Shown: positions 1 through 60,691 of the stretch, one piece after another | How the letters are laid out: each line of letters starts with the position of its first letter | Numbering within the stretch: the first letter of the stretch is position 1 | NCBI GenBank assembly: GCA_026770705.1 | Contig: JANJGN010000017.1 | Span: 43,090,001 to 43,154,000 of the forward strand | DNA: 64,000 nucleotides | Source: Isurus oxyrinchus | Taxonomy: Eukaryota | Direction: 5' to 3' | Made by a program: the position numbers and the translations under genes | The notes under the pieces: generated by a model | Seen by the model: the letters and a program-made list of their open reading frames with translations, nothing else | Databases searched by the model: none | Told to the model about the DNA's origin: nothing

Positions 1-514
1 TGTCAATCGCCCGCTGCCTGGACCTGTTAATGGCCAACTTGGCCAGGCCAAGGAGCAGGTTCACGAGGAGGTCCTCCTCCTACCCGACCCCCTTCCACAC
101 CGGGTGGTTAAGAAGATGTAACTCTTGTGAGTTAAAACAATTAAACTAAATTAACAAAATGAAGGACAAATCAAGCACAGCCCCTAATTCAGGTCAGCTG
201 TAAAACTAAGGACAAAGTTTAAAGGAAACTTACAAACTTTAAACCAAAATGTGATTAAGGGGGTCAATAAAGCACCCCAGTCCCTGTGGTGCCCACCGAG
301 CACGGAAGACCTCGAGAGTGCCGGCAGACACCGCGTGCTCCCTCTCCAGGGACACCCGGCCGCGAACGTAGCCGCAGAAGAGGGACAAACAATCAGGCGG
401 GACTCCCCTGTTGATCGCCCACTGCCTGGACCTGTTAATGGCCAACTTGGCCAGGCCCAGGAGCAGGTTCACAAGGAGGTCCTCCTCCTTCCCACACCAG
501 GTGGTTAAGAAGAT
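1..514 (-). mobile_element. Two tandem 3' fragments of a Tx1-clade non-LTR retrotransposon (ORF2 C-terminus + 3' UTR); units 118-514 and <1-117
   Basis: Minus ORF 239-472 (LLLGLAKLAINRSRQ...CLSLFCGYVRGRVSLEREHA...RWAPQG) resembles the vertebrate Tx1 ORF2 C-terminus. Bases 1-117 repeat 409-514 with an 11-bp indel. Both units start at ATCTTCTTAACCAC. Confidence 0.8.
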
Positions 515-835
515 GTAACTCTTTTGAGTACAAACACGTTTCCATCTGTTCCTATTCAGATGAAGTTACATTGTTTCATAGTTTGCCATTGTGAGATTTG
601 AACTCTTGATGTAACTCTTTCGAGTACAAACCCATTTCCATCTGTTTCAGATGACGTTACATTGTTTCATAGTTTTGCCATTGTGAGATTTGAACTCTTG
701 ATACTCTTTCGAGCACAAACCCGTTTCCATCTGTCTCAGATGAAGTTACATTGTTTCATAGTTTGCCATTGTGAGATTTGAACTCTTAATCTTGGGGTTA
801 CAAGCCCAGTACCATAACCACTTGGCTATTTAGGC
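515..835 (-). mobile_element. tRNA-derived SINE: one full unit (703-835) plus two 5'-truncated tandem units (611-702, 515-610)
   Basis: Minus 835-764 is a 72-nt tRNA-like head with A box TAGCCAAGTGG, anticodon loop CT-TGT-AA and B box GAGTTCAAATCTC. The ~90-bp body is present three times. Confidence 0.8.
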
Positions 836-3505
836 ACTATGTGGGCACAGGTGTTAATCATTTGTAGATAATGTTCACTATTGTAAATAAACTCCCAAGA
901 ATGTCTCCCTGCCTATGGCTCCTTGTTATGATGAGCAGTGTTCGTGCCAGTCAGATGTGAAACCTTGGCCTCTGCACAAGATAAATGCAATTGTCTCAGT
1001 CCAGGGCCTCTTACTTGTGCAGTGTGTAACCTTCAGAGCAATGTGATGGTCCAGCTTAACACTCACTGGACACATTAGTGATGCCTGCACCTCAATGGTG
1101 CTTGCCATTGCTACCAGAATGTTGTGGGCAGACATCACAGAGTTCCGTCATTCTCTCTGTGTGCTCTCTGCACCTTTAAGGTGGGGCTGGCCCCCATCTC
1201 TTCAGCATCTGTGACTAGTGACATGGTGCTCCTGAAGGGGTCAGGTGCTGAAGGCTGCTAAAGGATCAGGTGCATCTAAAGTTTCACGGCTGTGTCTCCA
1301 TGACATGACCCTGATTACAGAGTGCATGTGAGCTGCACTCAGCCAGAGAGGAGTGAGACATTCACAGAGGCTATGTAAAAGTATATGGCGTGTACTCACT
1401 GCATGTCGTCATCATCCTCCTGGAATATTGTGACTATTAAGGCCTCCGCTGCATCTCCATGATGAGTCTGAGCATTGAGTGCACTGCCATCAGCCACAGA
1501 GGAGTCAAACGTTTACAGATGCAAGGTGAGAATGTCAAGACTGTCTCACTGTATCTTGTCATCGTCCTTCATGAATCTTGCAGCTGAGGGCCTCATGAGC
1601 GTGCCTAACATCTCTGGCCAGTGCGATGGCCTCATCACCAGCATCCTCGCCTCCGAGGACCTCATCACCCTCATCCACTTTGATGTCCTCCTTATTGGAG
1701 GAGATGTACAGCTCTTCCATCTCCTCCTCAGCCATGTCCTCCCCCCGTTGCTGATCCAGGTTGTGTAGCGCACAGCAAGCTACGATGATGCACGACACAC
1801 TCTGAGGACTGTATTATAGTGCTCTGCCGGACCTGTCGAAGCATCGGAACCTCATTTTCAATATGCTATTGTTTGCTCCACCCAAGTCCAGGCTACAACA
1901 TGAGTCTCGTTGAACCGTCATTCTGCTGCAGTCTGAGGTCGCTGTATGGGTGTCATGAGCCAAGCCTTCAGTGGACAATTCTCATCTCCGAGGAGCCAAC
2001 CCTGCTCCCTCTGTGGACCCTGGAAGATGTCATCGATCTGAGACCTGCTAAGGATGGAGGAGTCATGGATGCTCCCTGGGAATCATGCGCAGACATGTTG
2101 CAGACCAGCTGAACATTCAACAAATGGAAGCCCTTGTGGTTGATGCGGTTGACTGCTTGTTGCCACGGAGATCTAAATGCCACCTGACTGTAGCCAATGG
2201 CACCCTGCACCTGTGGAAGACCAGAGATCAGTGCAAATCCCAATGCTTTTGCACCAAGGCTTGCCTGATCCCAGTCAAAATGCACAAAGTTGCATGTCAT
2301 CATGAAGATGGCATCTATGACCTCCTGGATGCAGTTATGAGTGGAGGCTTGTGAGATCCCACACAGGTCACCTGTGGAGCCTGGAAGAAACCACTGGCGT
2401 AAAAATTGAGCGCCACAGTCACTTTCACAGCCACTGGCAGTGGATGCCCTCCATGTGCCCCTGGCACCAAACCCTGTAGCAGTTGGCATTCGTGACCAAC
2501 CAGTTCCCTAGACATACACAATCTTCAACGACACTGGTTCTCAGTCATCTGCAAGAATGACAAGCACCATCTATAGACCCTAGGTCTAGCAAGGAGCCTA
2601 CAAGTAACGGTTCGCTGTGGATCTTCTGCTACGTGCACAGGAAGCCCAGCTGCACCTTCCTCTTGAGGGAGGTGCTCCTCCCATTGGCGAACCAGGTGCC
2701 ACTGGTGCACTTTTCTCCTTCTCTGCTCCCTGTAAGCCATGAAGCAGACCACCAGATCACAAGGCTCCATGATCCTGATGATCTCTTCCTGCAGGGTCAA
2801 CGAGAGAAACACTTGGTTTAGCATATGTGTGCTAAGGACCTCTCTTGTTTAAGCCTGTAGGCCCCTTCATGCATACCGGAGAGTGCTGGCCACCACTTGG
2901 ATGGCCAATGTGTAGTGTGCTCAATGGCTGACCAAACCCCACCCACCTCCATCCCACTCCACTTGACTGATTGGCAGCAGCTTTGCCCACTGGACTGCAT
3001 GCTGTGCTCTCAGCTCAGGCGTAGGCATTCTCCTAACCTGCACTGTAAGGCTGCGCTGTTAGCTTGAACCATGAGAGATACTGGTCCAAACCTTAATAAT
3101 AAAGACATTGTACAGGGCTGTAAGCGCCTCCACCAGTGACTGCACCATGGCCACCTTTCGCAATTGTTCTCCTGCTCCCTAAAATGCACATTAATTTGCA
3201 GTCTGCACCTGAGGGGTAAAAGTTCTGGAGCATTTGGTGGCACCTTCATACATTCATGCTTTTGTGTTGCTTAATTGAGTAGAAATGTTTCAGAGGCCTG
3301 ACTTTAAACTTGCCAATGGAGCTGCTGCCAAACGTCCCAGCTGCGGAAGAATGCTCACTTTTGACAAGCTTATCCAAGTGCCTAGCCGCTTCCATCACCA
3401 TCCCCTCCCCCACCTTCCCCCACCCCAGCATGTGCTTATGTGCTTCCTTCAGTCTGTGTTGTCTTCCCCACCACCCCATCTGCACACACTCAAAAAATTA
3501 GCCCC
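836..3505 (-). mobile_element. PIF/Harbinger DNA transposon copy 1 (partial; same family as 31892-36890)
   Basis: Colinear with ~33860-36430. Ends in TIR-like AAAATTAGCCCC (3494-3505). The left part is interrupted by the SINE/Tx1 array and runs off the window. Confidence 0.85.
1546..2770 (-). pseudogene. Harbinger DDE transposase, frameshifted
   Basis: Motifs spread over several frames: LPVAVKVTVALNFYASGFFQ, GDLCGISQASTH, PQVQGAIG, NHKGFHLLNVQLVC, IIVACCALHNL. Confidence 0.9.
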
Positions 3506-3922: not shown

Positions 3923-4270
3923 GATGCTCTGGGGACAGGGGTTCAAACCTCACCACAGGAGCTGGTGGAATTTAAATTCAATTTAAAAATCTGAAATTGA
4001 AAGATAGTCTCAATAATAGTGACCATGAATCTATCAGTAATTGTCATAAAGCCCCAACTGGTTCACTAATGTCCTTTAGGGAAGGAAATCTGCCGTCCTT
4101 ACCTGGTCTAGCCTACACGTGACTCCAGACCCGCAGCAATGTGCTTGACTCTTAACTGCCCTCTGAAATGGCCTAACAAGCCACTCAGTTCAAGGGCAAT
4201 TAGGGATGGACAACAAATGCTGGCTTTGCGAACAACACAAACATCCCATGAATGAATAAAGAAAAAAAAT
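3923..4270 (+). mobile_element. HE1-type shark SINE, 5'-truncated
   Basis: B box GGTTCAAACC, core CTGGTTCACTAATGTCCTTTAGGGAAGGAAATCTGCC, HER1-like tail AAGGGCAATTAGGGATGG...CATCCCATGAATGAATAAA. Homologous to 30904-31272. Confidence 0.85.
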
Positions 4271-8353: not shown

Positions 8354-8646
8354 TTAGGACAAGGGCAGCAGATTGATGGGAACACCACCACCTGAAAGTT
8401 CCCCTCCAAGTCACTCACCATCCTGACTTGGAAATATATCACCATTCCTTTACTGCCAATGAGTCAAAATCCTGGAACTCCCTTCGTAACAGCACTCTGT
8501 GTATACCTACACCACATGGACTGCAGCGATTCAAGAAGGCAGCTCACCACCACCTTCTCAAGGGCAATTAGGGATGGGCAATAAATGCTGGCCCAGCCAG
8601 TGAAGCTCACATCCCATGAATGAATAAAAATAATAATAATAATAAT
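8354..8646 (+). mobile_element. HER1 (CR1-group) LINE 3' end with (TAA)n tail
   Basis: AAAATCCTGGAACTCCCT...TTCAAGAAGGCAGCTCACCACCACCTTCTCAAGGGCAATTAGGGATGGGCAATAAATGCTGG; the tail is shared with the HE1 SINEs. Confidence 0.85.
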
Positions 8647-12608: not shown

Positions 12609-13836
12609 ATGGGAGCTGAACTCTCCACTGGAGGCACCTCCTCTGAGGAGGAAGGGAGGGCTAGAATGGGGAGGAGGCCAGGAGTGCACATTCAGCCTCC
12701 AGGTGAGCCACCTTTGAGAGGATAGGGGTAGGCACAAGGGGTGCAGGGCCAAGAGGTAGACCAAGTCAGAAGGGGCCACAGAAGACACCACTATCCTGCT
12801 GCCAGGGTATACAGGCAATGAAGCAGTTACCTCAATATGACTGAGGTGCAGTGCCCAAGGAGGCTCCAGCTCTCAAGGGAAACAGTCAACTATATCTTGT
12901 CAGATGATTGGGCCTGAGATCTCCTCTAGCTGTGTGGGTGGACACTCCATGCCAGTGGCTCTAAACGTCATAGCTGCCCTCAACTTCTATACCTCTGGCT
13001 CCTTCCAGGGGTCAATGTGTGATCTTTGCAGTGTCTCCCAATCAGCTGTCCACACTTGTGTCAAGCAGGTTACGGACGCTCTGTTTAGGCAATCATTGAC
13101 CTTCATCCACTCCCGTTGGAACAAGGCAAGCCAGACACAGTGAGCCAAAGGCTTCGCAATGATTGCTGGCTTCCCCCACATCCAGGGTGCAATAGGCTGC
13201 ACATATGTCATCAAGGCGCCAGCAGGTGAGCCCGCTGCCTTGGTCAACAGGAAGGGCTTCCACTCCCATGAACGTGCAGATAGTGTGTGATCACAGGATG
13301 CAGTTTCTACAAGTCTGTGCAAAGTACCTAGGCAGCTCCCACAATGCCTACATCCTCAGACACTCCTAGATGCTAGGGTTACTCAGTGCTCCAGCCCGAC
13401 TTGCTGGATGGCTGCTGGGTGACAAGGGCTATCCCGTCAGAAGGTGGCTCATGACACCTCTCCACCATCCAAGAACAGAAGCTGAGCAGCGGAACGATAG
13501 GAGCCACTCCTCCACAAGGGCTGTGGTAGAAAGAACCATCGGTCTCCTCTAGATGCGCTTCCGATACCTGGACCACTCAGGGGGTGCACTCCAGTACCCC
13601 CCAGATCATGTGTCAGTGATAGTGGTTGCGTGCTGCACTCTCCACAATCTTGCGCTGGAAAGGGGGAACGCAGTGGACAATGAAGACATTGTCAGCGGCT
13701 GTACATGATGAGTCCAGCAGTGAGTCCGAGGATGAGTAGGCACAGGGAAATGCTGAGGGGGGTAAATGCTGACCTGGGCATACTGCAGGGAGGCAGGGAT
13801 ACCCGAGAGGCTTTAATCCAATGAACATTCAGCTAG
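12609..13836 (+). pseudogene. Harbinger DDE transposase with stops and frameshifts
   Basis: MPVALNVIAALNFYTSGSFQ, IQGAIGCT, NRKGFHS, WLLGDKGYP, RAVVERTIGLL, ACCTLHNL. Confidence 0.92.
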
Positions 13837-14160
13837 CACGCCACAGATGGACTTCCAGGACAAGCCTGGGCTGCAGGCTCCATACTCGATACCTAAGTGC
13901 CAAGTCTGCCAGATTAGGAACAGTAACTTAGAGCCTTGGTAATAAAGCTGAATGTCCCACAAAGCACACCTAATATTTTTGAAAACCATATACATGCAGA
14001 AGAAAAGAGGCACCCTCAGCCATGGTTACGTCTAAATTTAATAGCACAAGCAAAGAAACTTAAGCCAAAAAAAATGACAATAGTGTTCCAATTCAAAGCA
14101 AATCATAAAGACCTCATTTTGGGCCAACACAAAAGCACCAGTGATAAACACATGGTGTGC

Positions 14161-16427
14161 CTAAGGCACTTTACGTTTCCGTTTCCGGGTGCTGTGTCTT
14201 GGTGCTGCCCCATCACTGGGAGTGGCATCTGAGGCATACTTCTGGCTCTGCTGTCCTGTTGACCTCGATGATCTTGGCGGTCATGCTCTGGCCCATGGAG
14301 TCTGTGCTGGCCCCGCCTGGAAGGGATCTGCCAGTTCCACAGCTGGCATCTTCCCAGTCATCGCAGACTCACCGGATACTATGGTGACTGGGAGAGGGGC
14401 AGAGGAGCTGCCGCCCTCATCTGGAGTGCCCTGAGAAGTGCCTGCAGAGAAGACAGGCAGCTGCTGTGCCGGCATGAGATCGCTTCGGATCTCCCTGTTC
14501 ACTGTGGATGGATGGGCACTGAGCTGGGAAACTTGGTGCCAAGACCATCTCCCACACTGGCACTGACCAGCTGAGGTCAATGCCAATGTGAGGGTTTGCT
14601 GGTCAGAGCACATCCCCAGGAAGCTCTGATGGGTCTCCTGGAGGAGCCTCTCCACGAGAGTTGCCACTCTCTCCATGGAGGATGCATGGCGCTCAGGCAT
14701 GTGGCTCATTGCTTTGGTGATCGTCCGTGTGGACTCCTGCACTACGGAGACCAAGCCAAGCATAGCCTCATGTAACTCCCCCAGATGCTCCTGCATTTGG
14801 CCGCATTTCATGACCTTGCTGCATCGCAGATGACTCCTCAGCACATCATCAGGCACCGACTGAGCATGTGCCTGGTCCCCTGCAGTCCTCCGACTGCTAG
14901 CGCCATGGGTACTCTCTGTCTCTGCCAGCTCCTCCAGCGATTGTGAAGTGCCCTCACCAATGTGCCCCAGGACACTAGCCAATGTTTTAACTCCCACCAA
15001 GGTGCTAGTATCTGCGCTGGTGCCTGCCTGGCAGAGATTGTGTGACGCTGGTAAGACTTCAGAGCCCTCAGGTGTGAGAGGGGACCTCTGCTGTTCCTCC
15101 TCCCGGCCCTGCTCCACTGATGCTGAAAGGTAGGACAAGGACAGTGGATCAGTTAACGTGGAGACAATGACAAAGTGCATCCCAGTACCCTGGATCATTA
15201 TGCGCTCATCCTTCTATAAGCAATGGTCAAGCCATGTTGCAAAATTAAATCACTTAACATTCAGCAGTGCTATGGCTGTTGGGAGAACAATTCTGACCTC
15301 ACTGCAGGGCATACATACCTGGCCGTGGCACCCCAGCCTCACCGACACCAGTAGACCTGGGCGCATGGCACCTCTCCAAATCCAGGGCCTCCTGCTCAAA
15401 CGGGCTGAGAATGGCGATCTGCGCCTGGCCACCGTCAGTCCTCACACAGTCTGCTGCATTATAAGCATTCTTCTCCTGAAAATGAGAGAAGAGCATTGAT
15501 TTGTGCAAATTGTACATGGACTCTCTTCACGCACAGGCCACACCAACCGGAGTGGGACATATCAGGGCTACAGTGTCTCCTCACCCCACTACTGCCGAAC
15601 ACTCACACAAAGATGCTAGGCCTGCTCCACACCCACCACCCCCCCACCCGCCCCGCCGCTTGGCCACATGCTGCCTACATCACATTAGGCACCACATGGT
15701 ATATGCTTCCATAGCAAGGAGGCACAAGCACATGGAGCGCATGGTTTGTTGCCATGCCACCTTAAAGCTCCCCTCCCACCATGTCATCACCCTGACTTGG
15801 ACATGTCCTGCAGTTCAAGCACAGTGTCTTGGTGCAGCTCCTCCAGGTTGCCCCCAAACCAGTCCAGTCATGTGGGTCTCAGTGTACCACATGCTGCGGG
15901 CACAGAACCCATCTGTTCACCACCCTCTCAGGCTGACCTCAGCGTGGGCAATATCTGCTGGCCCACCCAGCAAAGGACACATGCCGTCAATGATTCAATG
16001 CAGTCACTACTCTCAGACTTGTGGGGGGAGAGCAACAGGGGAGAAAGCTGACCTGCTGGATTAAGTGACCAATGCTAACGTTGTCCTCACCCTTCCAGAG
16101 CACAACAAGTTGGTGAAGCGCTTGTGACACTTGATCCAGGTGTGCTGCACCACGTTGCAGGAGCTCACCACCTCAGCCACCTCCTCCCAGACACGTTTTG
16201 TCATTTGAGGGAGCCTCCTTCTCCCATCCTGGGGAACCAGCACCTCACACCATGCTGCCACCTCCACGAGGAGGGCAGCAAGGCAGTTATTCTAAAAACG
16301 AGGGGCACACTGCACCATCCCCCCCCCCAACCCCCACCCTACCCTCCTGCCTGGCCTGCCCTAATAGCCTACCTTCCGGACTTGCATAACCTCCACTGCC
16401 CCTCTGCAGAGCCCTTCGCCCAGCCAT
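14161..16427 (-). pseudogene. Harbinger Myb/SANT-like DNA-binding protein, 3 exons (16427-16091, 15475-15319, 15122-14161)
   Basis: KRVWEEVAEVVSSCNVVQHTWIKCHKRFTNLL trihelix/Myb motif. Canonical splice sites AGG/gtgagg, ttttcag/GAG, CAG/gtatgt and ctttcag/CA. The 305-aa ORF corresponds to exon 3. Confidence 0.85.
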
Positions 16428-17494: not shown

Positions 17495-17730
17495 TGATGG
17501 TAGCATAGTGGTAATGTCACTGGACTAGCAATCCCCAGGCTAATGCTTTGGAGGTATAGATTCAAATCCCACCATGGCAGCTGGTGGAATTTAATTAATA
17601 AATCTGGAATATAAAACTAGTCTCAGTAATTGTGACCATGACAGCTGTCATTAATTGTTATAAAAATCAAGGGTCGCTAATGTCCTTCCTCACCTGATCT
17701 GGCCTACATGTGACTCCAGTCCCATAGAAA
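17495..17730 (+). mobile_element. HE1-type SINE, 3'-truncated and degenerate
   Basis: A box TAGCATAGTGG, B box GATTCAAATCCC, core homologous to the other HE1 copies. Confidence 0.75.
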
Positions 17731-18321
17731 TATATTAATGAGCGAGATTGGCTGGTTAGCCATCAACAATGCCCTGCATGGCAATGTTATCTCCAAGAGA
17801 ATGAGTTCTGTGAATCATTCAGCTGCAATTAAACTAATCTTGAAGTACGTATCCAGGATAACCTTCAAGATTTAGTCACGTTCTCTCATAAATTCCATCT
17901 TCTGTGCAAAGTTGAAATCTGGACAAAAATTCTTGAAAAGAAAGCAAATGGAAATGGTATTCCCATGAGTCTTGTGAAGTTCTATAAGGTATAAAAGAGT
18001 AAAGTCCATCTTATTCACTTTACAGGCTTCCAAAACTTTCAATATGCATGATGCATCAACCAGAAGAAGGACCTTAAAACCCATTGATATCTGCAAGATA
18101 TGTCTATTGTTTTTATTCTTACTGTAACCTTTTTGTTTGTACATTGGAGTCACAGAGGTGATTCCACAATCCTTTGCTCCAAGCTGGAAAGCAGTAATTA
18201 GAAGAGTGAAGATTGTGGATTGGGTTACAATATTCTTTGACTACATCCTCCACTAATCTCTGTGAACACAGCATTCTGCTGGAAGACAGGAGCACAGAAT
18301 ACTCCTCATACGCAAGGACTT

Positions 18322-20004: not shown

Positions 20005-23000
20005 TTAGCTATCCCTCACTAGCGAGGATGATTGTCTTCCATGGCCAGGATTTTCATGTGGTCGGGCGGGCTCAGCGGGCAGGCCAAGGAGTTGTCGGGA
20101 AACCGACCACTGCCTGCAATCGGGCTCCGACCTGGATTTCACGCTGGCTGGCCAATTAACGCTGCCGGGGTGGGGGGGGGCGGGAGTAGCGCGAGTGCTG
20201 AAGTTCGCGGATGTGCGTAGTAAAAGCTCCCTGAGGCACAAGATTTTTTAAATTAAAAAACTTAAGCAATGTTAAAAACATGTCCCCTCATGTGACTCTG
20301 TCACATGAACAGAGACATGTTATGAATTAAATTTAAAAATTTTAATTTAATTTTTATTTGCTGTTGGAAACCTCATCCCGTCCATGGATGAGGTTTCCTA
20401 AAGAATCCAAAAGCCGCTTGGCCTTTTCGCCTGCCCACCAACCATAAGGTTGGATGGGCGGTGAAAGTTTCATTTAATCATTACATTAATGGCCTTAATA
20501 GACCTGTTAATTGTCAGCGACTTCTGTGCTCACCCGCCGACCAAAGTATCGCGGGACTGAGTGATGATGTCGGAACACTTGCCCAATGTCATCGCGCGTC
20601 ATTTTACGCTCATTCTGGTTGGGCGTACACCCGCCCGATGAGCGCAATATTCTGCCTATGCGTCCAAAGATGATTGATGAGGCCAATTTGGGATCTGCAG
20701 ACTTTAAGGCATGTAGGACATTTGTTGTAACTTGGATGTCTGGTTGTGTGTTATCAGCTGGGGTGATGGCGTGTTCTTATCACCACTTTTGTTTTCCCTG
20801 TTCATTTTCTCACCTTTGGGTCTCAAAATGCTGGAATCCTTCCCACAGACACTGCTGCCATCTGGTACAATTGAAGGCAATGATCTTCCAGGAGTTGATG
20901 TCAATGTTGTATTTCTTCATGTTAGTTTTCAGCAAATCCTGAAGCCCTTCTGTCCTGATTGAGCTGGGAGAAAAAGACCTACTTTGGGAACCTGGTATCT
21001 GAGATCTGAATTATATGACCAACCCAACAAAGCTGATGGCGGATGCTTATTGTGTCTGCTTGTGGGAGGACACTGATGTTGGTATGCCTGCCCTACTACT
21101 TAATATGTAAGATCTTCCACAGGCAGCATTAATGGTATGACTCCAGCGCTTTGAGGTGCCTCCTATACATTATCCATATTTCAGCCCCATACAGTAAGGT
21201 AGGGACCTCGACCACAGGGTAGACCATGAGCTTGGTTTTAGTTTTGATGTCGCAATCTTCAAATGCTCACTTCCTCAGGTGGCCTAAGGCTGCACCAGCA
21301 TATTTCAGGTGATACTTAATTTCTTCATCAATGTCAGCCTTTTGTGAAAGATAACTTCCAAGGTACTGGAAGTGTTCCACATTTCCTAGGCAATCATCAT
21401 GAATTCTAATCAATGGGGTTGAGGCGTGTGCATTTGGAGCTTGCTGATGGAGGATTTTTGTTGCGTGTAGGTCCCATCTTCTCATATGCTTCAGTAAATC
21501 TGTTGACAATTCTGTGGAGATCCGTTTCTGACACAGCACTTACTGCAGCACATCAGCATATTGAAGCTTAATGAGGTCGGGGTTTTTGACTGGAGCCATC
21601 TGAGATTAAATTGTTGACTCTCCATTCAATGAGTAAGCTGCACTTGAGCAGAAAGCCTGTCTCTAATCAGATGGAACGTGGCAACAAGGAAGATCAAAAA
21701 AAGAGTTGATGCGATTACACAACCTTGTTTTACTCCTGTCTTAACCTCAGATGTGGCTGTAATGGATCTGTTGTTGAGGATCACCACTCAAATCATCATG
21801 ACGCAGACAAAAGATGGTAACAAATTTTGGAGGACATCCATATTTCAGCAGAATCTTCCAGAATGCCTCACGATTTCTAGAGTCGAAGGCTTTTGTCAAG
21901 TCAAAGAACATTATGTGGAGAAGTTGATTTTGTTCGCAACATTTTCCTTGTAGCTGGCAAAATGTAAAAATCATGTTGGCCATGCCTCTTGATAGCTTAA
22001 ATCCACACCGTGATTCAGGGAGTAATTCTCCAGGAAGTGTAATAAGTTGATTCAGAGGGTTCTTTAATGATCTATCCTGCAATGGGAAGCAGGGAGCTGC
22101 CTCTATAATTTCCACTGTTGGATTTTCCCCCCTTACTGAAGATTGGCCCAATCAATGGGTGTCCTTCAGGTCATTCAGGACTTCTTCTTCATTCCCAACC
22201 TGTAGGGTAAGGACATGGAGCAGTCATGTTAGTTCCTCACCTCCGTGATTAAATATTTCAGCAGGGATTCCACCACCTCACGTTGCTTTGTCATTCTTCA
22301 ATTGTGTGATGGCTTTCATCACCTTCATAGGCATTGGAAGAGTTCCAAGCCCATCTCTAATTGGGTGTTGCAGAATCAACAATTGATTCTTGATTGAAAA
22401 GGTCTTCAAAATGCTCCCTCCAATGGGCATTGACAGCTTTCCTTTCCTTGATAAGATCTTCCCCATTCTTAGGCCTCAGAAAAGCTGGTTCTTAAGTACT
22501 TGGGCTATAAATGGTCTTTGTGGCAGTGAAGAAGCCACGGATATCATTCATATCAGCAAGATGTTGAATTTCCTTTGCCTTGTCTGCCCACCATATGTTC
22601 TTCATGTTGTGAGTGCACCTTTGTACGTCAGCATTTGCTTGTTGGTAAGCCAGTTTCTTTTGCTTTGAATTTAGATCATTCCACCAGGTGCAGAAAGTCT
22701 TGCACTTGCGATCAATCAGTTCATTGATATCCTGATCATTTTCATCAAATCAATCCTAATGTTTCCAGACAGAAAATCCAAGTGTCACTTTACAGGCATT
22801 GATGATATCGGCCTTAAGAACATCCCAAGCACTCTTCTTCTGTTCTTGATGGAAGTTTGAAAGTTTTTCCAAAAGACATTGTTGAAATCGGTCTCTTTTC
22901 ACTGGATCCTCAGAGCTTCGATGTTGATCTTTCATGGATATTTCTTCTGTTGCACCCATCATGTGGGAGCCAGTTTGATGGACATAATTGAATGGATAAG

Positions 23001-28410: not shown

Positions 28411-29947
28411 TGTCAGGAAGATATAATAATGTTACTGGAATTTATTGTAACATAGTGGTATCTGTGACTATGTATGTCTGTGTGTGCATGAGAGAGAGAC
28501 TTAATTGGGTTAAAGGCAGCTGGTCCGCAGGCTTTGATGTATTAGAAGATAAGCTAGTTTGAAATGTTATGTAGGTAAACATGGGAGATGTTTAGAACAT
28601 AAGGTGTAAAAGGACAATTGCATTTTTAAATAAACTAGACTAGCTTGAATTCAAAAGAGGGAAATATTACATCTAACCAGTAGAAGTTAAGAAACAGTGG
28701 GCAGAATCTTGCCCTTGGATGGTGGGCGGGCCCCACCGGCTTGGTGGCAGGCAGGCAGCCGACCCCCGCCACTGAAACTGGGCCCGCTGCCATTTTAAGT
28801 GGTATCCACTTCCTGTGCAGGGGGGGAGGGATTCCCCAACTGTCAAAGTGCGCTGTTTCGCGCATGCGCATGAAAGAGCACACTCCTCCCTGAGGCAAAG
28901 TCCTGTTTCAGGAGAATACTGACAGTGTCAAAAACATTAAAAATAGAAACATTGAAAAATTATTAACATGTCCCCGTCATGTGACAATGTCACACGAGAT
29001 GGGACATGTTAACAAAGACCACACAAACTTTATTTTTTTACAATATGGGCATGAAACTTCATCCCGCCAGTGGATGAAGTTTCATCAATAATCTGGAGCC
29101 CGCTGGGGCTCCTGGCCTGCCTGCCAGCCTTAAGGTTGGACGGGCAGGTCTTTACTTTAAATAGTCTGTCAATGGCCTAAATTGGCCATTGACAGGTCAG
29201 CGGGTGGACAGCTGATTTCACTGTCCGCCCACCTTCCTACAAATTTAAATGTACCTGGATGACGGCAGGGATTCCTCCCAATGTCATCCTGCATCATTTT
29301 CCCCTCAGCGACCAGGCCCCGCCCCCAAATCACCGAGGGAAAAATCCTGGCCAGTGTGTTTATTTTTTCTCAAAGTTTACTGGTAAAATTGGTACTTTGG
29401 TATATTTTATGATCAGGGAGGTAAAGTTCAAAGACATAGTGCAACAATGAGAATTTACATTCAAAGGGGAAATCATGTATAAAGGAGAGAAGGCTGTGTG
29501 TAAAGGCAGGCATTTTGAGATCTAACAAGTGTGAAAAACGTTCAGCATCTATGCCTCAAGATGCACTCTACAATGAACTGGAGTTAAGAAAACTCATTTT
29601 GAATTTTATTGTTCAGAGTGTCATGTTTCTTTGCCTGGATCTTTTAAAACTAATGTGTCTTATTGTTATCTTAACAGAGGTGTAAAAGGAAGTCAGATTA
29701 ATTAGAGGATTTAGAAGTTATTATCGGAATAATTTGTAGACATATGTATGTGCTTAAAATTATTTCTCTTATTAATAACTGTTTAATCTAGTTTTGTAAA
29801 AAGTAATAAGGCTCTATAGTCTTATTATTACTGAATTCAAAGCCCACATCTCGAAACATACAAATTGCAAAAATAGTTGTGGTAGTTGTCTGAAGTTTCC
29901 CTCTGGATTGGAACAACTCAGCATTTACCATTAGCTGTGCCATAACA
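28411..29947 (+). mobile_element. Solo LTR (~880 bp without its MITE) of the Gypsy family at 59570-64000
   Basis: TG...CA ends (TGTCAGG...CATAACA), flanks GTGTG/GAGTG, colinear with 59570-62833. Confidence 0.88.
28699..29352. mobile_element. Harbinger MITE (subfamily B) inside the solo LTR
   Basis: TIRs GGGCAGAATCTT / AAAATCCTGGCC; perfect AGT TSD. Confidence 0.92.
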
Positions 29948-30903: not shown

Positions 30904-31272
30904 GGGGAGGTGGTGGCATATGTATTGTCACAGACTAGTATTCCAGAGACCCAGGGTAATGCTCTGGGGACCTGGGTTCAAATCCCACCATGACAGGTGG
31001 TGAAATTTGAATTTTATGAAAATCTGGAATGAAAAGTCTGATAATGACCATGAAACCATTGCCGATTGTCGTAAAAATGCACCTGGTTCACTAATATCCT
31101 TTAGGGAAGGAAATCTGTTGTCCTTACCTGGTCTGGCCTACACGTGACTCCAGACCTACAGCAATGTGGTTGAATCTTAAATGCCCTCTGAACAAGGGCA
31201 ATTAGGGATGGGCAATAAATGCTGGCCTAGCCAGCGATGCTCACATCCTATGAACGAATAAAGAACGAATAA
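30904..31272 (+). mobile_element. Full-length HE1-type SINE
   Basis: tRNA-like head with B box GGGTTCAAATCCC, conserved core and HER1 tail. Confidence 0.9.
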
Positions 31273-32159
31273 AGGCTGTGAGCAGCCTTTGTGATACCTT
31301 CATGGTTGCTGCATCACCACTTCCATGTGCAACTGAGAGGGGACCCTGCTTACCACTTCAAATAAAAATACGTGTCCATAAAAATGATTATGAATTGAAG
31401 GCCTCGTTTAATGCGATACCAAAAAATTAAGACAAATCTTCAATAAGTAAGTATAATTATATTGAAAGAAGCTTATTCACTCACTTCTTTTATTTTGCAG
31501 TTGATTCTGCTCTACATTTATCAACTTCCTTCTGGTCTTAAGCTCTTCGTACACATAACCTCCATTCATCTCTCAGTGCAAAAGTTGAATCACTATGTAT
31601 CATTCTCCATGTTTTTTGATAGAATCATGAAAGCCTTGTTTCATTCAATTTTTTGAAGGCACAGCTTCTTCATGTCTCTCATAAGTCCAAACAACACTTA
31701 ATATCTTTTTTTACCATCTGACATTGTTGGTCTTACTATCTGCTGTCATCTCAAGTGGAACTTTTACATCTGCTACATCATTTTAATTTCCTGAATAATT
31801 CTTGATTCTATAAAGCACATTCTGGCCAAAACTGTTCACAGACACGAGGAAGCTTTTCAAGTACTGCTTTCACTCCTGGGTAGTGTGGATTGGGCGGAAT
31901 CATCCCAGATTTGCATTAATTGCAGTGGGGCGTGGAAAATTACGTTTTACCCATTGGTTGCAATGGTGGCTTTTCACGCCATATTATCCCCTTCCCATCG
32001 TGTCCCACCTCATAAATTATTCCCGGGAAACAAGCCGGCAGGGCAGCCTCTAATTTGATCATCCCGCTGTCACCTCAGGCCTTCAGCAAACCAAACACAT
32101 TAAAGGCCTCCCCTGCAAAGAGTTAGTCTCTTCAAGGGATAGGAAGCTGTTGGGAACTG

Positions 32160-33855
32160 ATGGCTGCCAAAGGGAGGAAATATGCTGCCCCCAAATTTAG
32201 TGATGCCTCCCTTGAGCGTCAACTAGATGCAGTGGCGGCCCGCCACAAAGTCCTCTACCCCCACTCTGGGCGAAGGCCAGCAAGCAAGGTCACCAATCCA
32301 GCAAGTGAGGCAGTGGCAACAGTGGTCAGTGCCAAAGTCCTGCAAAACGGAACAGCCACCCAGTGCTGCTGAAAGGGGATGAATGATCTCTCCTCTGTTC
32401 TGCCAGGGTAAGGTATTCTTCTCATCACTCTCAACTCACACACTCACAAGCCCATCACACATCGACAGGGATCTCACTCACTGCCAGTTCAAGGGACATC
32501 ACCATTCATTGTCTCACATATACCTTCATCTGCCCTGTGGATTGTATCCTTATCCCCCGTCTATGGCACTAATCACCACCCACACAGCCCAAGCATCTTT
32601 ATCATCTGGCTTGGCAGGCATCCTGCTTACAATCTCCCCATCTGTATTCATAAAGGACAAGCTGGCACATAACAAAAGAGAGAGGTCGCAGACTGGTGGA
32701 GGAATGCCTGACATGAAGGTCCTCACAAACTTTGAAAATAGAGCCATCCAGCTGGCTGGCGATGATCTGCACCATTCCTGTGCTGACGGTGAGGTCAGCA
32801 GTGCTCAACCAAGTGAGGATCCAACAGTGCAACATCCATCAGACAACCATGCTGTGAGTCAGTTTCCCTGTTCTGCCATCCTGTGCCATGTACTAATTAT
32901 CTCTCCTTACTTTCGCAGGCACATCTGGAAAACAGCTGAGGGGTCCATGACCCAGGTGCTCGACTCAAGCCCCAAAGACACCTCAGAAGAAGAATCTGAT
33001 GAAAACATCACTGAAGACCCATCATAGCGCTCACCCACACCCTCCAACAAAGCAGAGACAAACAACTCGGTGGGACCTAGTTCTCCAGTAGCCTCGGGGT
33101 CACAGTCTGGTGAGCATATCACACTGAATGATTTACAGCAGGCGGCGGCAGGGACGTCTCAGGTTTCCAGTACTGGAGGACTGCTAGAGGCCAGAAATCT
33201 GCTGAGTCTGTGTCAGATGAGGAACCTCTGGACTCAGTCATACCTCAGTTGCTGGAATTGTAAAAGCAAGCTCAGGACAACAGGAAAGGATGTCTGGTGC
33301 ACTCCTAAGACTGCAGGACACACTGGAGGAGTCCATCCACCTTCAGCCTGATGTGATAACACCGGCATGCCAACGCACTGAAGTCAACACTGGTAGGATG
33401 ATGACGCCATTGGAGACCTTAGTCCAGGACACCAGTCCTGCACTGCTGCATGGGCTGATGCCATAGCTTGCCTCCGACAGCTTCAGTGCGAGAGGGGTGC
33501 AGGGTGCAGGGCAGATCGATTTCAGTCCAAGGAGTCAGCTAGGGGTCCTTGGGGAACCTTAGAGAGGAGGATGAGCAGGTGCGGGTGCAAGTGACTCCAG
33601 GAGTGTCTGGCCCATCTGAATCCCCTCTTCCTGTGACTTCAGCAGCTCCAGCCCCAAAGGCCAAGGAGGGTGCCACTGCCACACAGAGGCACCCTGAAAG
33701 CAGGCTGGGGCACCTAGGACTTGGCCCTCCAGAGGACACCCGTCAAGGTCATCACAGACAGGGTGTAGCAGTCAGCAGGCTGCCTCCACTTCCACCTTGG
33801 ATGTTGGGGAGTACCAAGATGTAGCAGCAGGGTTAGGAAGGTTAAGAAAATGTAG
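32160..33855 (+). pseudogene. Harbinger Myb/SANT-like protein, 3 exons (32160-32407, 32656-32812, 32919-33855)
   Basis: MAAKGRKYAAPKFSDASLERQLDAV..VLYP..TATQC and DKLAHNKRERSQTGGG. Splice sites AGG/gtaagg, taaag/GAC, CAA/gtgagg and tactaat..ttcgcag/GC. Confidence 0.85.
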
Positions 33856-34555
33856 TTTCATTGCATGGGCACTGACGTTAATCACTTATACATAATGTTG
33901 ACTACTGTAAATAAACTCCCAACAACGTCGCCCTTTCTATGGCTCCTTGCTAAGATGAGCAGTGTTCGTGTCAGTCTAAAGTGAAATCTTGATTCCTGCG
34001 CAAGATAAAGGCATGTGTCTCAGTCCAGGGCCTGTTCCTTGTGCTTTGTGCAACCTTCCCAGCACAGTGATGGACTGCCTTCACTGTCACTGAACACATC
34101 AGTCATGCCTGCACCTCGATGGGGCTTATCGTTGCTGCCTGAATGTCCTGGGCCGGCAGCACAGAATTCTGTCATTCTCTCTCTGTGCTCTCAGCACCTA
34201 TGAGGTGTGGCTGGGCCCCCCATCCCATCAGCATCTGTGTCCAGCAACAGTGTGGTCCTGAAGCTCACAAAGGATGCCATAGGATCAGGAGAAGTTAAAG
34301 TTCCCCAATTGCATCTCCATGATATGACCCTGTTCAAGGAGCGCAAGTGATCAGCTATCAGCCAGACAGGAATCAGATATTCACATAACTATATGATGAT
34401 CTATGGAGTATCCCCACTGTATGTCATCATCATCCTCGTGGAATATAGGGACTATGGGCATCTGTTGTGTCTCCATAACAGGAGCCTTATCACAGGATAT
34501 GTGCGCTGCCATCAGCCAGACAGGATGCAATGTGAGGATCTATGGTGTCCGCTCA

Positions 34556-35774
34556 CTACATGTTGTCATCATCTTCCATGAATCTAGCAGCTATCAGGGC
34601 CTCCCAAGCGCCCCTGCCTCGTCTGAACAATGCAATGGCCTCATTGCTGTCATCCTCGCCTTCAAGGACCTCTTCACCTTCACCCCATCGATGTCCTCCT
34701 AATCGGAGGAGATATGCAGCTCCTCCTCTTGTTGCAGCACCAAGTTGTAAAGGGTGCAGCAGACAATGACGATGCGTGACACCTTCTGTGGACTGTATTG
34801 CAGGGCTCCACCAGGCCAATCCAAGCACTAGAGCCTTATCTTCAATATCCCAATGGTTTGCTCCACCAAAGTGCAAGTTGCTGTATGAGCCTCATTATAC
34901 CTTTGCTCTGCATTCTGAGGCCGCCGCACAGGCATCATCAGCCACGCCCCCTCTGGGTAGTCCTTGTTCCTGAGAAGCCAACCCTGCAGCCTCTGTGGAC
35001 CCTGGAAAACATCTGGGATCTGAGACCTACTGAGAATGTAGGAATCGTGGTCACTCCCAGGAGCTCGTGCACAGACCTGCAGGTTGCGTTTGCTGTGGTC
35101 TCACACAAGCTGAACATTCAGCGGGCAGTAGCTCTTGCAGTTGATGTAGTTGACTGTTTGCTGCCATGGAGATCTGAGCGCCACATGAGCTCAGTCGATG
35201 GTACCTGGCACCTGTGGAAAACCATAGATCTACACAAATTCCAGCACTTTCGTGCTTCCTGGCTTTCCTGATCATGGGTGAAATGCACAAAGTTTGGTGC
35301 CTTTGCGAATATGGTGTCCATGACATCTGGGTTGCACTTGTGTGTGGAGGCTTCCGAGATCCTGCAATGGTCACCTGTGGAGCCCCGGAAGGAGAAACTG
35401 GCATAAAAATTGATTGCTGAAAGCGATTACTTTCACGGCCACTTGAGGTGTCCATGTCCCCGTGGTGTCAAATCCTGCAGCATGTAGCAGATGTGACCGA
35501 CCAGTTCCCTGGACATGCACAATCTTTGGTGACATTGGTTCTCGGCCATCTGCAGGAATGACAAGCGCTGTCTGTAGACTCTGGGTCCAGCCAGGCACCA
35601 ACCCGTGACAGCTCGCTGTGACTCTTCAGCAGTGTGTGCAGGAGCCCCAGCCGCCCCTCCTACTTGAGGGTACTGCTCCTTCCTCTGCTTAGCCAGGCGC
35701 CTCCATTGTTCTCTTCTCCTTCGTCTTCCCTCTCTGTAAATTATGAGGCATAAAGCTAGGTCACCAGGCTCTAT
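34556..35774 (-). pseudogene. Harbinger DDE transposase, frameshifted
   Basis: RVYRQRLSFLQMAENQCHQRLCMSRE, QVAVKV, DTIFAKAPNFVHF and LIAARFMEDDD; homologous to 1546-2770. Confidence 0.88.
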
Positions 35775-37325
35775 GCCCCTGATGTACTCCTCCTGCAGGA
35801 TGAAAGAAAGAGACACATGAGTTAACGTGGGTGTACTAAGAATGTCTCTTGATTAAGTCTGAAGGCCCCTAAACACATGCCAGAAAGTGTTGGCCACTAC
35901 CTGGTTGCTCAGAGTTTACTGCGCTGTGTGGCTGCCCAAAACCCCATCCATATCTGCCCCACTCCACCTGACCGATTGGCAGCAGCTTTGTCCACTGGAC
36001 TTCATGCTGTGCTCTTGGCTCAGGCATTCTCCTAATCCATACTGCAAGGTTGCACTGTTAGCTTGAAACGTAGGGGAGACTGGTCCAAACCGTAATGAAG
36101 ACATTGCAAGGGGCTGTGGGCACCATCGCCAGAGACTACTCCATGGCCAGCTTTAGCAAGGAGATTGTACAACTTGCCCAGTCGTTGAATTGTTCTGCCG
36201 CCCCCTAAACAGTCATTAATTTGCAGTCTGCGCCCAAGGGGTGAAATGTTCAGGAGCATTTGGTGGCACTTTCATGCCTCTGCGTTGCTTGAGTGGACAG
36301 ATAAGCTGGAGGTCCAACTCCAAGGATGTAGCTGCACTTGAACTGTCTCAGCTGCGGGAGAATGCTCACTTAATACACAGTTTCCCTATTACGTGTCCAT
36401 TTCCCTCCACCGCCCCCATCCATGTGCTTGTGTTGTACCATCAGATCGTGCTGCCTCACCCCTCACCCTAACCGCAATGCAGCCCTTGCCCCGGCATTAG
36501 ACTGTCTGCCAGCCAGGAAAAAGCGACTTGCCTGTGCTCTCACCTGAATACACGGTGCCTCTGCCTTGAAGGTGAGCAGGCGACCCTCGCAAGCGCTGCG
36601 CAATTTTAATGTGCACTCACATCTGAGTTACCCACGAAGTTCAGCTCGCCAGGTGCAGGTCTTTTAAATGCTGTTGTGAAACACATCAGCGTGTGCCCGG
36701 ATGATCCAGTGTGTGGGGAGGTTTCCAGCTAGCAGGCAAGATGATTAAAGGCAAATGCATTGAAACGAGGTTCCTGACGTTGGACAGTGGGAAAGGCGGC
36801 CCACCATTGACAATTTTTAGCCACCTCACCATATTGTCTGCTCAAGCCCACCATGACGCCCGGCGCCAATGGAGTCAGAAAATTCCAGCCATTGGAACAG
36901 AAGTGAGGGATAATTTCTTCCCTCAGATGGTCATTAGTCTTTAGAATTCTCTTCCACAGAGAGGAGTGGAGACTGGGTCATTGTATATATTCAAGGCTGA
37001 GTGAGACAGTTTTTTGATCTACAAGGGAATCAGTCAAAGGTTGCTGGGGAGCAGAGATGAATGTTGGGCGGAGTTTTCCATTTATGAGACATTGTGCGGG
37101 GGCGAGCAATTTCGACAGCGCACACCCTGCTGGCCAGAATGGTGATAACTCACGCCTGATTCCGCGCTTGGAGGGTCATTAATTTTGCACAGGTGAGGAT
37201 CAGGCTGAATCACCTGGCGGATCGGGAGCTGATTCGTCCGCCTGCAGTCAGCTGGCAGGGTCGAAGGTATAGGCGCCATATTTAAAGGCTAGTTCACCAC
37301 ATAATCTCTCCAACCACATGCAGAG

Positions 37326-38830
37326 ATGATTTGCAGCCAGAAGGAGAAGAGCGAGAGCCTCAAGAGGAAGGCAGCGTCCAGCTTCACCCACCAGGCCTTG
37401 ATCAGAGGAGCATGGGCACACAGGGAAGGCCTATATCCCAGGGATGCCTGCAGGAAGTGCAGCAGCCTCACCTCTCTGGCCTGGGAGCCCATAGCAGAGC
37501 AGGTCAAGTCTGCTGGCAACCACACCTGAAAGTGCAGGAAGGCTGCCAGGGTAAGTCATCTTTCAACTCCCTCTAATATCAAACTCTCATCATAACATCA
37601 TGCACTCAAGCAGCTACTTTCTTCAGGGATCTCACACAACCATAAGCAAGGGACACAAATCAACACTCATTCTCTCACCGAGACTTACACATGACTACCA
37701 TCCCATTTACCATGTTACTCACACTCCATCCTCTAGCCCTTCTAGGAACAGCTCACCACACAAAAGGGATATGTATCTCACCCAACCTCTGTTCTATCCC
37801 TTCTCATCACATGCCTTTCTTTCTTCATCACACAGGCCAAGCTGGCACACAACAGGCACAGGAGATCACAGACCAGGGGAGGGACGGCCGACATCATTGC
37901 CCTGACTGGGCTTGAGGAAGTTGCAGCTGAGCTGGCTGGGGAGGACAGGGATCACTCCTGTGGGGTAGGGGAAATCGGCCTCTCCCAGCAACCTATTACG
38001 GATCACAGCTCCATCACTTCATCAAATCCTGACATTCACAGTGAGTCACATACAGTCTTATCAAGCTCGTGCTCATTAACTGAAAATCTATTTTCTATTT
38101 TCTGGGCACCAGCAGATCAAGGCCCACAAACCAATTGATCACCACTGCGAGCCCCCAGACCATGTCCAAAGAAGAAGCTCTGGAAGAACTGAACTGGCAA
38201 TCACATGCACCCTACACCAGCTCAGAGACACACACGTCGGTGGGGCACAGCAGTAGATTAGGCTCAGGCTCATTTTCTGGAGAACACCTCACTGACACAT
38301 CCCACAGCAGTTGGAGGCAGGGACAGCCCAAGTCTCTGGCACTTGGATGACTGCTGGGGACCAGCCACCCATTCAGTCCGAGTCAGATGATAAGCCTCTG
38401 GAAGTGGCCGCCAACTCAATGCTGGCGATACAACGACAGGCAGTGAAACATCAGGCCGAGATTCGACAGCCACTCAGCAAACTAGAGTGAATGGATGAGT
38501 CCATCCTTGTTCTGTCTGGTGTCGTGGCTCCGACATGCGAACACCTCGAGGTCACCAGGAGGAGGTTGGCAACCACCATGGAGAACTTGGTCCAGCAGGT
38601 CTTGCCATATTTTCACCATGCCCTGCACTCCATGGCCACACACTCCGGTGGGCACCATCAGGATATAGGTGACATGGGAACCTCCCACTAGGTACACCAT
38701 CTGCTTCTGGAGTCAGGATGGGGCCCTTGGGCACCCACAGAGAGGATGATCGTCAGCTGGACACCCTGGGGCCTCCTCTCAGGACACTCCAAGGGTGTGC
38801 AGCCACTCACAAGCCTGTCATTGTGACCCC
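37326..38830 (+). pseudogene. Harbinger Myb/SANT-like protein (spliced, truncated)
   Basis: KRKAASSFTHQAL..GLYP..LAWEPIAEQV; donor AGG/gtaagt at 37550; exon 2 AKLAHNRHRRSQTRGG from 37836. Confidence 0.8.
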
Positions 38831-38859
38831 TGTTGGGAGTGTATTGGAGTGAGCCACCT

Positions 38860-39821
38860 CAGCAGTCCAAGCATCAGAAACACATTTTCAGAAGCCCTTT
38901 AGTCTGCTGTATAAGGGAGCATGTGAAGCTGTGAACAGCATTGTACTTCTCCTCGGAATGACTCTCAGGATGGTGCACAGGTATCATCAGCCAGTGTTTC
39001 ATTGGGTACCCTTTATCCCCAAGGAGCCATCCCTGCAGACGTAATGGCCCCTTGAGAATCTCAGGCACCTGGGAGTAACTCAGGATGTAAGAGTCATGGC
39101 AACTCCCAGGGTACCATGCACAAATGCGCAGTATGTGCTTCCAGTAATCACACGTCCGTTGCACATTGATAGAATTATACCCCTTGCGGTTTATAAACAT
39201 TAGGATCTGCTGCCATGGAGCCCGTATAGCCACATGGGTGCAGTCTATTGCACCCTGCACTCTTGGGAAGCCAGAGATGGTAGCGAAGCCAGTGAATCTC
39301 GCAGCCTAGTTATCTTCGTCCAGAGCAAACCTGACATAATGATGTGCCTTCCTGTCAAGGGTATCTGTGACCTCCTTTATGCATCGATATGTTGTGGACT
39401 GAGATCTGCACAGGTTCCCTGTTGATCCTTATAAAGAACCAGAGGCAAATAAATTTAGTGCTGCAGTCACCTTCAAAGCTACTGATAGGGGATACCCTCC
39501 AACTCCACATGGCATCAGGTCTTCACGAAGAGTGTGACATATGTGATGTACTAGAGCTTGGAACAAGTGCAGACATGCATGGCATTGCCTCTCACTCACT
39601 TGTAAATAAAAGACTCTTCTACGATAAGCCCTAGGTCTGGTGATTTCCCTTTGTTGTCTGGGCCTCTCCTCTTGACCCTCCTGTTCATGCTCTGGCTCCG
39701 CTTGACCATGTCCCTCGGGTGTGGCACCCTGCTGGAACTGCGCACAGAGTCGCCTTTCCCTCCTTTGCCTCCTCCATTTCATTAGGACCCTAACAAAGGC
39801 AGCACTGAGCCCTGGATCCAT
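38860..39821 (-). pseudogene. Harbinger DDE transposase, disrupted and 3'-truncated
   Basis: QGAIDCTHVAI, NRKGYNSINVQ, YPGSCHDSYIL and LLGDKGYP; N-terminal LSVALKVTAALNLFASGS is in another frame. Confidence 0.92.
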
Positions 39822-40133: not shown

Positions 40134-40400
40134 CTTTTATTCATTTACAGGACGTGGGCATCGCTGGCTAGGCCAGCATTTATTGCCCATCCCTAATTGC
40201 CCTTGAGAAGGTGGTGGTGAGCTGCTTTCTTGAACTGCCGCAGTTCCTGCGGTGTAGGTACACCCACAGTGCTGTTTGGGAGGGAATTCCAGGATTTTGA
40301 CCCAGCAACAGTGAAGGAACTGTGATATATTTCCATCCAAGTCAGGATGGTGAGTAGCTTGGAGATGAACTTCCACGTGGTGGTGTTCCCATGAGGCTGC
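40134..40400 (-). mobile_element. HER1 LINE 3' end nested in Harbinger copy 4
   Basis: Reverse complement of 8354-8646; SKSWNSLPNSTVGVPTPQELRQFKKAAHHHLLKGN. Confidence 0.88.
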
Positions 40401-46983: not shown

Positions 46984-47067
46984 GAAACGTCAACTCTTTT
47001 CTTCTCCGCCGATGCTGCCAGACCTGCTGAGTTTTCCAGGTAATTCTGTTTTTGTTTAGGATATTTC
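46984..47067 (+). repeat. Single-arm fragment of the Penelope-derived palindromic repeat
   Basis: Near identical to 55922-55995, with three differences. Confidence 0.85.
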
Positions 47068-53150: not shown

Positions 53151-53151
53151 C

Positions 53152-55792: not shown

Positions 55793-56031
55793 AACACAAA
55801 AACAGAATTACCTGGAAAAACTCAGTAGGTCTGGCAGCATCGGCGGAGGAGAAAAGAGTTGACGTTTCGAGTCCTCATGACCCTTCGACAGAACAGTTCT
55901 GTCGAAGGGTCATGAGGACTCGAAACGTCAACTCTTTTCTCCTCCGCCGATGCTGCCAGACCTACTGAGTTTTTCCAGGTAATTCTGTTTTTGTTTTAGA
56001 TTTCCAGCATCCGCAGTTTTCTTTGTTTTCA
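55793..56031. mobile_element. Penelope-derived non-autonomous palindromic insertion
   Basis: Perfect 99-bp inverted arms 55796-55894 / 55896-55994; 14-bp TSD AACATGTAATATGT (55779-55792 and 56032-56045). Confidence 0.85.
55895..55933 (+). ncRNA. Minimal type I hammerhead ribozyme-like motif (mirror copy on the - strand)
   Basis: AGUU-CUGUCGA-A-GGGUC(AUGAG)GACUC-GAAA-CG-UC-AACU. Stems I and II pair, but the core is CUGUCGA rather than CUGANGA. Confidence 0.55.

Positions 56032-60610: not shown

Positions 60611-60691
<81 letters not shown>

Follow-up and report, generated by a model that had tools for sequence, protein, structure and literature searches.

The locus considered here raises a specific question: when a tRNA-derived SINE and a LINE lie side by side and finish in nearly the same short sequence, has the LINE been mobilizing the SINE, and if so, by reading what? 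A preliminary description of this DNA had proposed that a ~133-nt SINE is mobilized by a Tx1 element through a specific tetraloop hairpin found at the 3' ends of both. We examined the proposal in the whole 64,000-nt stretch of Isurus oxyrinchus DNA that was analyzed (here called the window). The locus is a nested insertion array inside an older Harbinger transposon, and the order of its parts on the minus strand could be resolved from the window sequence: host, unit 1 (830/835-703), unit 2 (702-614) with TAC, unit 3 (610-518), target (503-517), LINE fragment A (502-121), target (106-120), and fragment B (from 105 to beyond the window). All inserts sit stacked at a single nick, which coincides with the stop codon of a reading frame of Harbinger, and the SINE 3' end and the LINE 3' end both adjoin the same target base. 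The features are as follows.

831-3360, decayed Harbinger-like DNA transposon, the host; 71% to 33866-36371 (aligned flank, 842-3360)
1921-2082, minus strand, DDE_Tnp_4 remnant (Pfam E 2e-5, just short of the cut-off)
764-835, minus strand, tRNA-like head with UGU (Thr) at the anticodon position; A box 828-818, B box 783-775
703-830, minus strand, unit 1 of the SINE-like element, almost complete, with the tRNA-like head and a body of ~60 nt; begins at 830-835
728-742, minus strand, main hairpin, within the SINE body (CATCTG, loop of 3-8 nt, CAGATG)
614-702, minus strand, SINE unit 2, a tandem copy lacking the head; it begins just upstream of the B box and is followed by 3 target-like bases (613-611)
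518-610, minus strand, SINE unit 3, a tandem copy lacking the head, its inner hairpin loop longer by an inserted 5 nt
518-529, minus strand, SINE terminal 12-mer with a 4-bp stem and 4-nt loop; also at 625-614 and 714-703 (loop GAAA there)
503-517, target copy 1, a 15-bp piece of the Harbinger host separating the SINE from LINE fragment A
121-502, minus strand, L1-group (putatively Tx1-type) 3' fragment A; ORF2 C terminus 502-242, stop 241-239, 118-nt 3' UTR
121-132, minus strand, sole visible LINE terminal 12-mer; 11/12 identical to unit 3, 16/19 with upstream bases
106-120, target copy 2, identical to copy 1 (15/15)
1-105, minus strand, LINE fragment B, with its 5' truncation point as in A; extends past the window edge
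33840-33950, plus strand, paralogue of the site with no insert; the target runs into the stop codon (33853-33855) of the frame that converges on the transposase
14157-14175, minus strand, second, more distant empty Harbinger site; its stop codon plus the 4 nt that follow agree with the SINE 5' flank (831-837)

Four decayed Harbinger-like copies, connected by tblastn within the window, lie in these 64 kb (~13150-16300, ~32100-36400, ~37300-39700, and 831-3360), and their transposase and Myb-like genes are convergent. The third copy has a DDE_Tnp_4 match at 38874-39305 (Pfam E 6e-23), and a Myb_DNA-bind_5 match was obtained in one of the three other copies tried (16064-16291, in the 14-kb copy, upstream of the stop); the combination of DDE_Tnp_4 transposase and Myb/SANT gene by which PIF/Harbinger elements are recognized is therefore present. 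The insertion site (33840-33855 and 14161-14175) is at the stop codon of the second Harbinger frame, after a basic C-terminal stretch; going by the general layout of Harbinger elements, this frame is presumably the last exon of the Myb/SANT gene. In the 14-kb copy the stop codon lies within an inverted repeat (14169-14157).

When the array is excised in silico, 503-517 becomes joined to the sequence past 833, and the product is collinear with 33840-33950. The first 15 nt match 33840-33854 at 14 positions, where ~0.008 such matches would be expected in the window. Given this collinear match to an empty paralogue, the 15 bp that follow both junctions, including the TAC of GAGTTAC, are host target. 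GAGTTAC can thus be rejected as a proven element terminus: the TAC is present in the empty site, and either the elements end at GAGT or the TAC is microhomology. Of the three Harbinger sites that could be assessed in the window, one is filled and two are empty; the fourth copy seems to lack the region.

The 15-bp host repeat flanks fragment A on both sides and represents a target site duplication (TSD), whose true length could be 27 to 34 bp. Around the SINE end plus target there is an unbroken direct repeat, identical at 26 of 27 bp or, when extended, at 31 of 34. The 5' side of the SINE has just 2 nt of target, against 15 here. The SINE units differ from one another by 4.5 to 5.7% and fragments A and B by 7.4% (5 of the 7 differences are at CpG), well below the 21.8% that separates the Harbinger host from its paralogue; the inserts are accordingly of similar age and far younger than the host-paralogue split.

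Fragment A, which has no poly(A), encodes 87 C-terminal residues that are 63 to 73% identical to six protein relatives; protein searches with the LINE fragment gave 2 and 4 relatives in the sense frame and 9 and 7 matches in the antisense frame. The longest relative, P0006, has a C terminus to which fragment A is 67% identical. P0006 matches RVT_1 and zf-RVT (both below the cut-offs), and its five PDB matches are four LINE-1 ORF2p entries and one "RNA-directed DNA polymerase." Because P0006 carries reverse transcriptase and zf-RVT regions and matches LINE-1 ORF2p, the LINE fragment belongs to the L1 group. This identity is established at the locus, as are the anatomy of the array, its empty paralogues, and the target duplication. 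The LINE is probably of the Tx1 clade; we take the Tx1 rather than the L1 label to be appropriate from the likeness of the C terminus and from the insertion pattern. No Pfam family matched the LINE fragment itself, and the best score in the Atlas comparison, 0.77, is uninformative. In prokaryotic genome contigs none of 44 pattern matches to the LINE profile was confirmed, and plasmids and phages gave no match, results that have no bearing on novelty. Fragment B, whose reading frame was checked against P0006, retains 11 nt that are missing from A (87 matches, 7 mismatches, and one 11-nt gap in the alignment). Both fragments start at the same codon, with an overlap of 1 to 2 nt with the target, and so are not independent.

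The SINE-like unit has a tRNA-like head, A and B boxes, and a length well under 1 kb, the features by which SINEBase recognizes a SINE; the simple-repeat tail that SINEBase also lists was not seen, as none of the three SINE ends has a poly(A) or microsatellite. The length given in the preliminary description, ~133 nt, holds in part: the tRNA-Thr(UGU)-like head is there, but the 5' bases 835-831 fit the tRNA model and the host sequence alike, so that unit 1 measures 128 to 133 nt. The head aligns with positions 1 to 71 of the Rfam tRNA model at 24.5 bits, short of the gathering threshold of 29 (E 0.025), and ARAGORN found no tRNA in it; together these exclude a working tRNA gene. An snRNA or other Rfam family in 1-1500 was likewise ruled out, the remaining matches having E values of 4.7 or worse. 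TRF gives the tandem a period of 89 with 3.0 copies. Units 2 and 3 have no A box and are truncated tandem copies; the three SINE ends are consequently not independent. Moreover, both units begin at ATC, the same three letters that come after TAC in the target, and they look like microhomology-led copies for that reason. The inner hairpin of the body forms with a pair probability of 0.96 to 1.0 in all three units; the LINE UTR lacks it and folds differently. Downstream of the head the first T4 runs are at 249, 205, 159, and 137 (minus strand), all of them within the LINE fragment; pol III transcription that starts in unit 1 could therefore continue into the LINE tail and yield a chimera of SINE and LINE tail. 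All SINE copies in the window are in tandem at this one locus, and the remaining 63 kb hold no further copy of the SINE or the LINE (best other nhmmer match, E 0.38). The SINE motif was found at 0 loci in prokaryotic genome contigs, and these prokaryotic collections have no bearing on novelty.

The four hairpin strings of the preliminary description are on the minus strand where it had placed them, and it was correct that neither SINE nor LINE ends in poly(A) (no A run longer than 4 within 100-835). It was also correct that the elements are unrelated upstream of the shared end: the local score there is 13, which 724 of 1,000 shuffles reach, and since shuffled sequences score as well, SINE-LINE homology beyond the last 19 nt is rejected. 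The shared hairpin survives in reduced form, with 11 of 12 nt in common, but the final TAC of GAGTTAC and the next 12 nt are host DNA. ACTC-N4-GAGT is present three times in the 64 kb, each time within the array (unit 1 has GCTC instead). The chance of an 11/12-nt match at a fixed position is ~9e-7; it is therefore beyond chance and needs a shared origin, whether family-level homology or a local copy. Just upstream of the 12-mer 5 of 7 bases match, and because chance gives such agreement at 7 of 95 UTR positions, these do not decide between the two. The single LINE 3' end sits in a local direct repeat, so that the LINE 12-mer may have been copied from the SINE. Some light comes from P0016, an antisense-frame relative with a related 3' UTR that aligns with 143-330 and that alone reaches the 3' UTR among the antisense matches examined (P0010 left out). 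Its ungapped extension places an 8-nt purine run opposite 124-131, and 121-132 may on this account lie within the natural length of the LINE. Its codons cannot encode the hairpin motif at the equivalent place; across residues 60 to 135, the sole compatible position (≤1 mismatch) is residue 69. P0016 thus mildly favors, as regards length, a LINE that itself ends in the 12-mer, and it speaks against a conserved stem; it is one distant, codon-degenerate record, whose purine run may be poly(A).

We lean toward an explanation in which a target-preferring Tx1 moved both SINE and LINE into one site, as with SINEU-3 and Tx1-Mar in crocodilians. A site-preferring Tx1 endonuclease would nick Harbinger where its second gene, of Myb/SANT type, has its stop codon, and target-primed reverse transcription would begin from that nick on a short, purine-rich, poly(A)-less RNA end, possibly assisted by up to 3 nt of RNA-primer pairing. 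Tx1 would leave 5'-truncated 3' fragments flanked by the 15-bp duplication, their 5' ends joined at microhomologies, and the same machinery most likely put the pol III, tRNA-Thr-derived element into the same nick in trans. Each insertion would regenerate the target at its 5' junction, to be reused or duplicated, and for this reason inserts would stack head to tail, presumably arriving in the order B, A, unit 3, unit 2, unit 1. Since A and B share a 5' end, as do units 2 and 3, local duplication or microhomology repriming is to be envisaged rather than five independent events. It was probably from the LINE that the SINE acquired its purine-rich end of 12 to 19 nt, which has no poly(A) and at which reverse transcription would start. 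In favor of this explanation, the empty paralogue links both array flanks collinearly, the second empty site backs the SINE 5' flank, the two 15-bp copies are identical, the inserts are of similar age, and the TSD is close in length to the 16 bp of SINEU-3. Against it, there is one locus with one LINE 3' end, the SINE 5' side has 2 nt of target, two of the three assessable Harbinger sites are empty, so that the target preference is putative, and the 12-mer lies inside the 27- to 34-bp direct repeat.

That repeat is the starting point for the main competing account, possible although in our estimation unlikely, in which there was no partnership and the LINE hairpin is a copy of the unit 3 end. 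The SINE would have inserted first, with a 2-nt duplication; the Tx1 fragment would then have landed 12 to 19 nt inside the SINE 3' end, with 27 to 34 bp, made up of the SINE end and 15 bp of host, copied behind it, and the unit would later have been duplicated in tandem. This explains the continuous direct repeat with fewer events than the preferred explanation and covers all junctions, including the short SINE 5' TSD of 2 target bases. In addition, the loop begins with A in the LINE and in unit 3 but with G in units 1 and 2, although such a shared A is CpG decay and can occur twice. A plus-strand T4 run at the unit 3 end could have primed an A-rich LINE end; however, the LINE would then be left without any A-rich end of its own, the landing beside the SINE end would be fortuitous, and 27 to 34 bp exceeds the ~10 to 16 bp described for SINEU (PMC4494074). 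It is quite improbable that the locus is instead a one-off chimera, in which the tRNA-derived piece belongs to no SINE family but is a pol III transcript picked up through template switching as a single Tx1 inserted, or else part of a fused unit of SINE and Tx1 tail. The window has no second copy, all units are near-equally diverged, the lack of a T4 run between the head and 249 would permit read-through, and 5' addition of small-RNA pieces is reported for Tx1 and SINEU (PMC4494074). On the other hand, a simple template switch would not be expected to leave host target DNA between SINE and LINE, and the head has diverged from a working tRNA and has a structured body of its own.

The preferred explanation has a narrower form, akin to the preliminary proposal, in which the Tx1 ORF2 protein is stringent: it would bind a tetraloop hairpin at the 3' terminus, and the SINE would carry an imitation of that hairpin. 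We regard this form as doubtful. A 4-bp stem is possible at all four ends, the sole stem change (in unit 1) is G-U compatible, and two SINE units have a C-GAAA-G loop, of the stable GNRA type; the LINE loop is ACAA, which is not GNRA. A flush hairpin with 4-bp stem and 4-nt loop ends 0.5% of 20,000 random 30-mers from the window, but under loose criteria the figure is 11% (33% with G-U). Without host bases the stem is marginal, at 4 bp and -2.1 to -3.2 kcal/mol (LINE, -2.1). The LINE stem then has a pairing probability of 0.15 to 0.19 in the full UTR and 0.42 to 0.53 in the last 60 nt, compared with 0.92 in the UTR for the 6-bp stem (-4.8 kcal/mol) that includes host TAC. The SINE stem pairs at 0.18 to 0.22 in unit 1, 0.07 to 0.09 in unit 2, and 0.61 to 0.80 in unit 3, and 61-nt folds at two junctions gave z values of -0.40 and -0.75. 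The stem has no two-sided (compensatory) change, in copies that are few and not independent. The strong inner SINE hairpin is absent from the LINE, and P0016 cannot hold the motif at the matching place. Poly(A) is absent, and stringent L1-group lineages are known from maize/sorghum and from Chlamydomonas; the described L1-group pairs share ~45 to 80 nt, and the present stretch is far shorter, 11/12 nt and at most 16/19. The claim of specific hairpin recognition is thus not supported, its stem being partly host and the rest a marginal 4 bp at one LINE end. A SINE/Tx1 link does stand as plausible, although on evidence other than the hairpin: the better argument is the same Harbinger nick with a 15-bp target duplication between the two inserts. 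The full proposition, a putative tRNA-Thr SINE family moved by a poly(A)-less, stringent Tx1 that reads a 12-nt tetraloop hairpin and targets the Harbinger Myb/SANT stop codon, appears to us unlikely.

The window contains several other elements, and its repeats appear chondrichthyan in character. A second, dispersed tRNA-box SINE family (3924-4263, 17498-17731, and 30911-31265) has ~70 to 80 nt of 3' end in common with presumed LINE tails (8366-8629, 40135-40402, 53000-53152, and 56809-56884), an ordinary pair that provides an internal control; 31193-31272 and 8559-8639 have 72 of 81 3' columns in common, the LINE identity being presumed. A decayed LTR retrotransposon at 41625-45784 has 145-bp direct repeats that are 94% alike and protease, reverse transcriptase, and integrase Pfam matches on the minus strand. 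There is also a near-perfect 200-bp palindrome at 55796-55996, with two head-to-head arms, part of one of which recurs at 46984-47057. Old, mutually related repeats at 20110-20654, 28411-29871, 50474-51058, and 59092-62780 are probably LINE ORF2 fragments. A reverse transcriptase match lies at 21747-22151. A weak Lipase_GDSL_2 match at 54186-54680 (E 2.5e-4) may come from a LINE whose ORF1 is of the esterase type.

Tx1 elements belong to the L1 group and insert with site preference; their choice of RNA has been little studied. Were a pol III SINE to share both target and 3' end with one of them, it would test whether stringent recognition has persisted in a vertebrate L1-group lineage, and it would define a very short signal by which a site-specific inserter takes up its cargo, a minimum for trans-insertion directed to one site. 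If the long duplication is correct, this is an ordinary nested insertion. In open-licence PMC and bioRxiv texts we found no tRNA-SINE/Tx1 pair with a shared 3' end, and the 20-nt SINE motif occurs in 0 of the papers in that collection; such a pair may already be catalogued in Repbase Reports, Dfam, or subscription papers. The Tx1 mentions in PMC4176376 are peptide names, not the element. No Tx1 partner appears among the SINE/LINE pairs listed in 2012, and Tx1 is absent from Table S1 of PMC3472496. The sole Tx1-linked SINE group that we found in print, SINEU, is tied to Tx1 by a shared target alone, as described in PMC4494074.

Among known systems, tRNA-derived SINEs with LINE-derived tails are familiar from chondrichthyans (HE1/HER1, SacSINE1, and CmiSINE with L2-2_CM). 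Compared by their descriptions, however, these have non-Tx1 partners and longer bodies with V, Deu, or CORE domains, and CmiSINE heads are tRNA-Ala. Tx1L of Xenopus, like the present LINE, sits at a fixed site in a DNA transposon, but its host, Tx1D, is piggyBac-type, and no SINE partner is mentioned in the account consulted. ZmSINE2/3 with LINE1-1_ZM and SINEX-3_CR with L1-1_CR are tRNA SINEs whose 3' end is common with an L1-group LINE. Those pairs share the longer stretch noted above, ~45 to 80 nt against 12 to 19 here; the monocot stem has compensatory changes and the algal pair has poly(A), and our locus has neither covariation nor poly(A) (PMC3472496 and PMC3747384). Closer parallels come from crocodilians, as described in PMC4494074. 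One Tx1 family there, Tx1-9_AMi, prefers Harbinger transposons, so that both cases involve a Tx1-type insert in Harbinger; Tx1-9_AMi inserts ~300 bp from the Harbinger 5' end, however, whereas the present insertion is internal, at a gene stop codon, and the main text names no SINE partner for it. SINEU-3 and Tx1-Mar come nearest. Their tandem copies sandwich a 16-bp TSD, and SINE and Tx1 share a target in a DNA transposon, Mariner-N4_AMi, just as a short element and a Tx1 occupy one DNA-transposon site here with a TSD of 15 bp. The heads and hosts differ (U1/U2 and Mariner there; a tRNA-Thr-like head with A and B boxes and Harbinger here), SINEU has poly(A), no common 3' end was found for SINEU-1, and the crocodilian preference was measured over hundreds of copies against our one locus (PMC4494074). 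What the shark DNA holds, then, is a real nested insertion, well resolved and resembling SINEU/Tx1-Mar in the way it works, whose head is a tRNA and whose target is Harbinger, and in which a stringent SINE/Tx1 pair is no more than a candidate.
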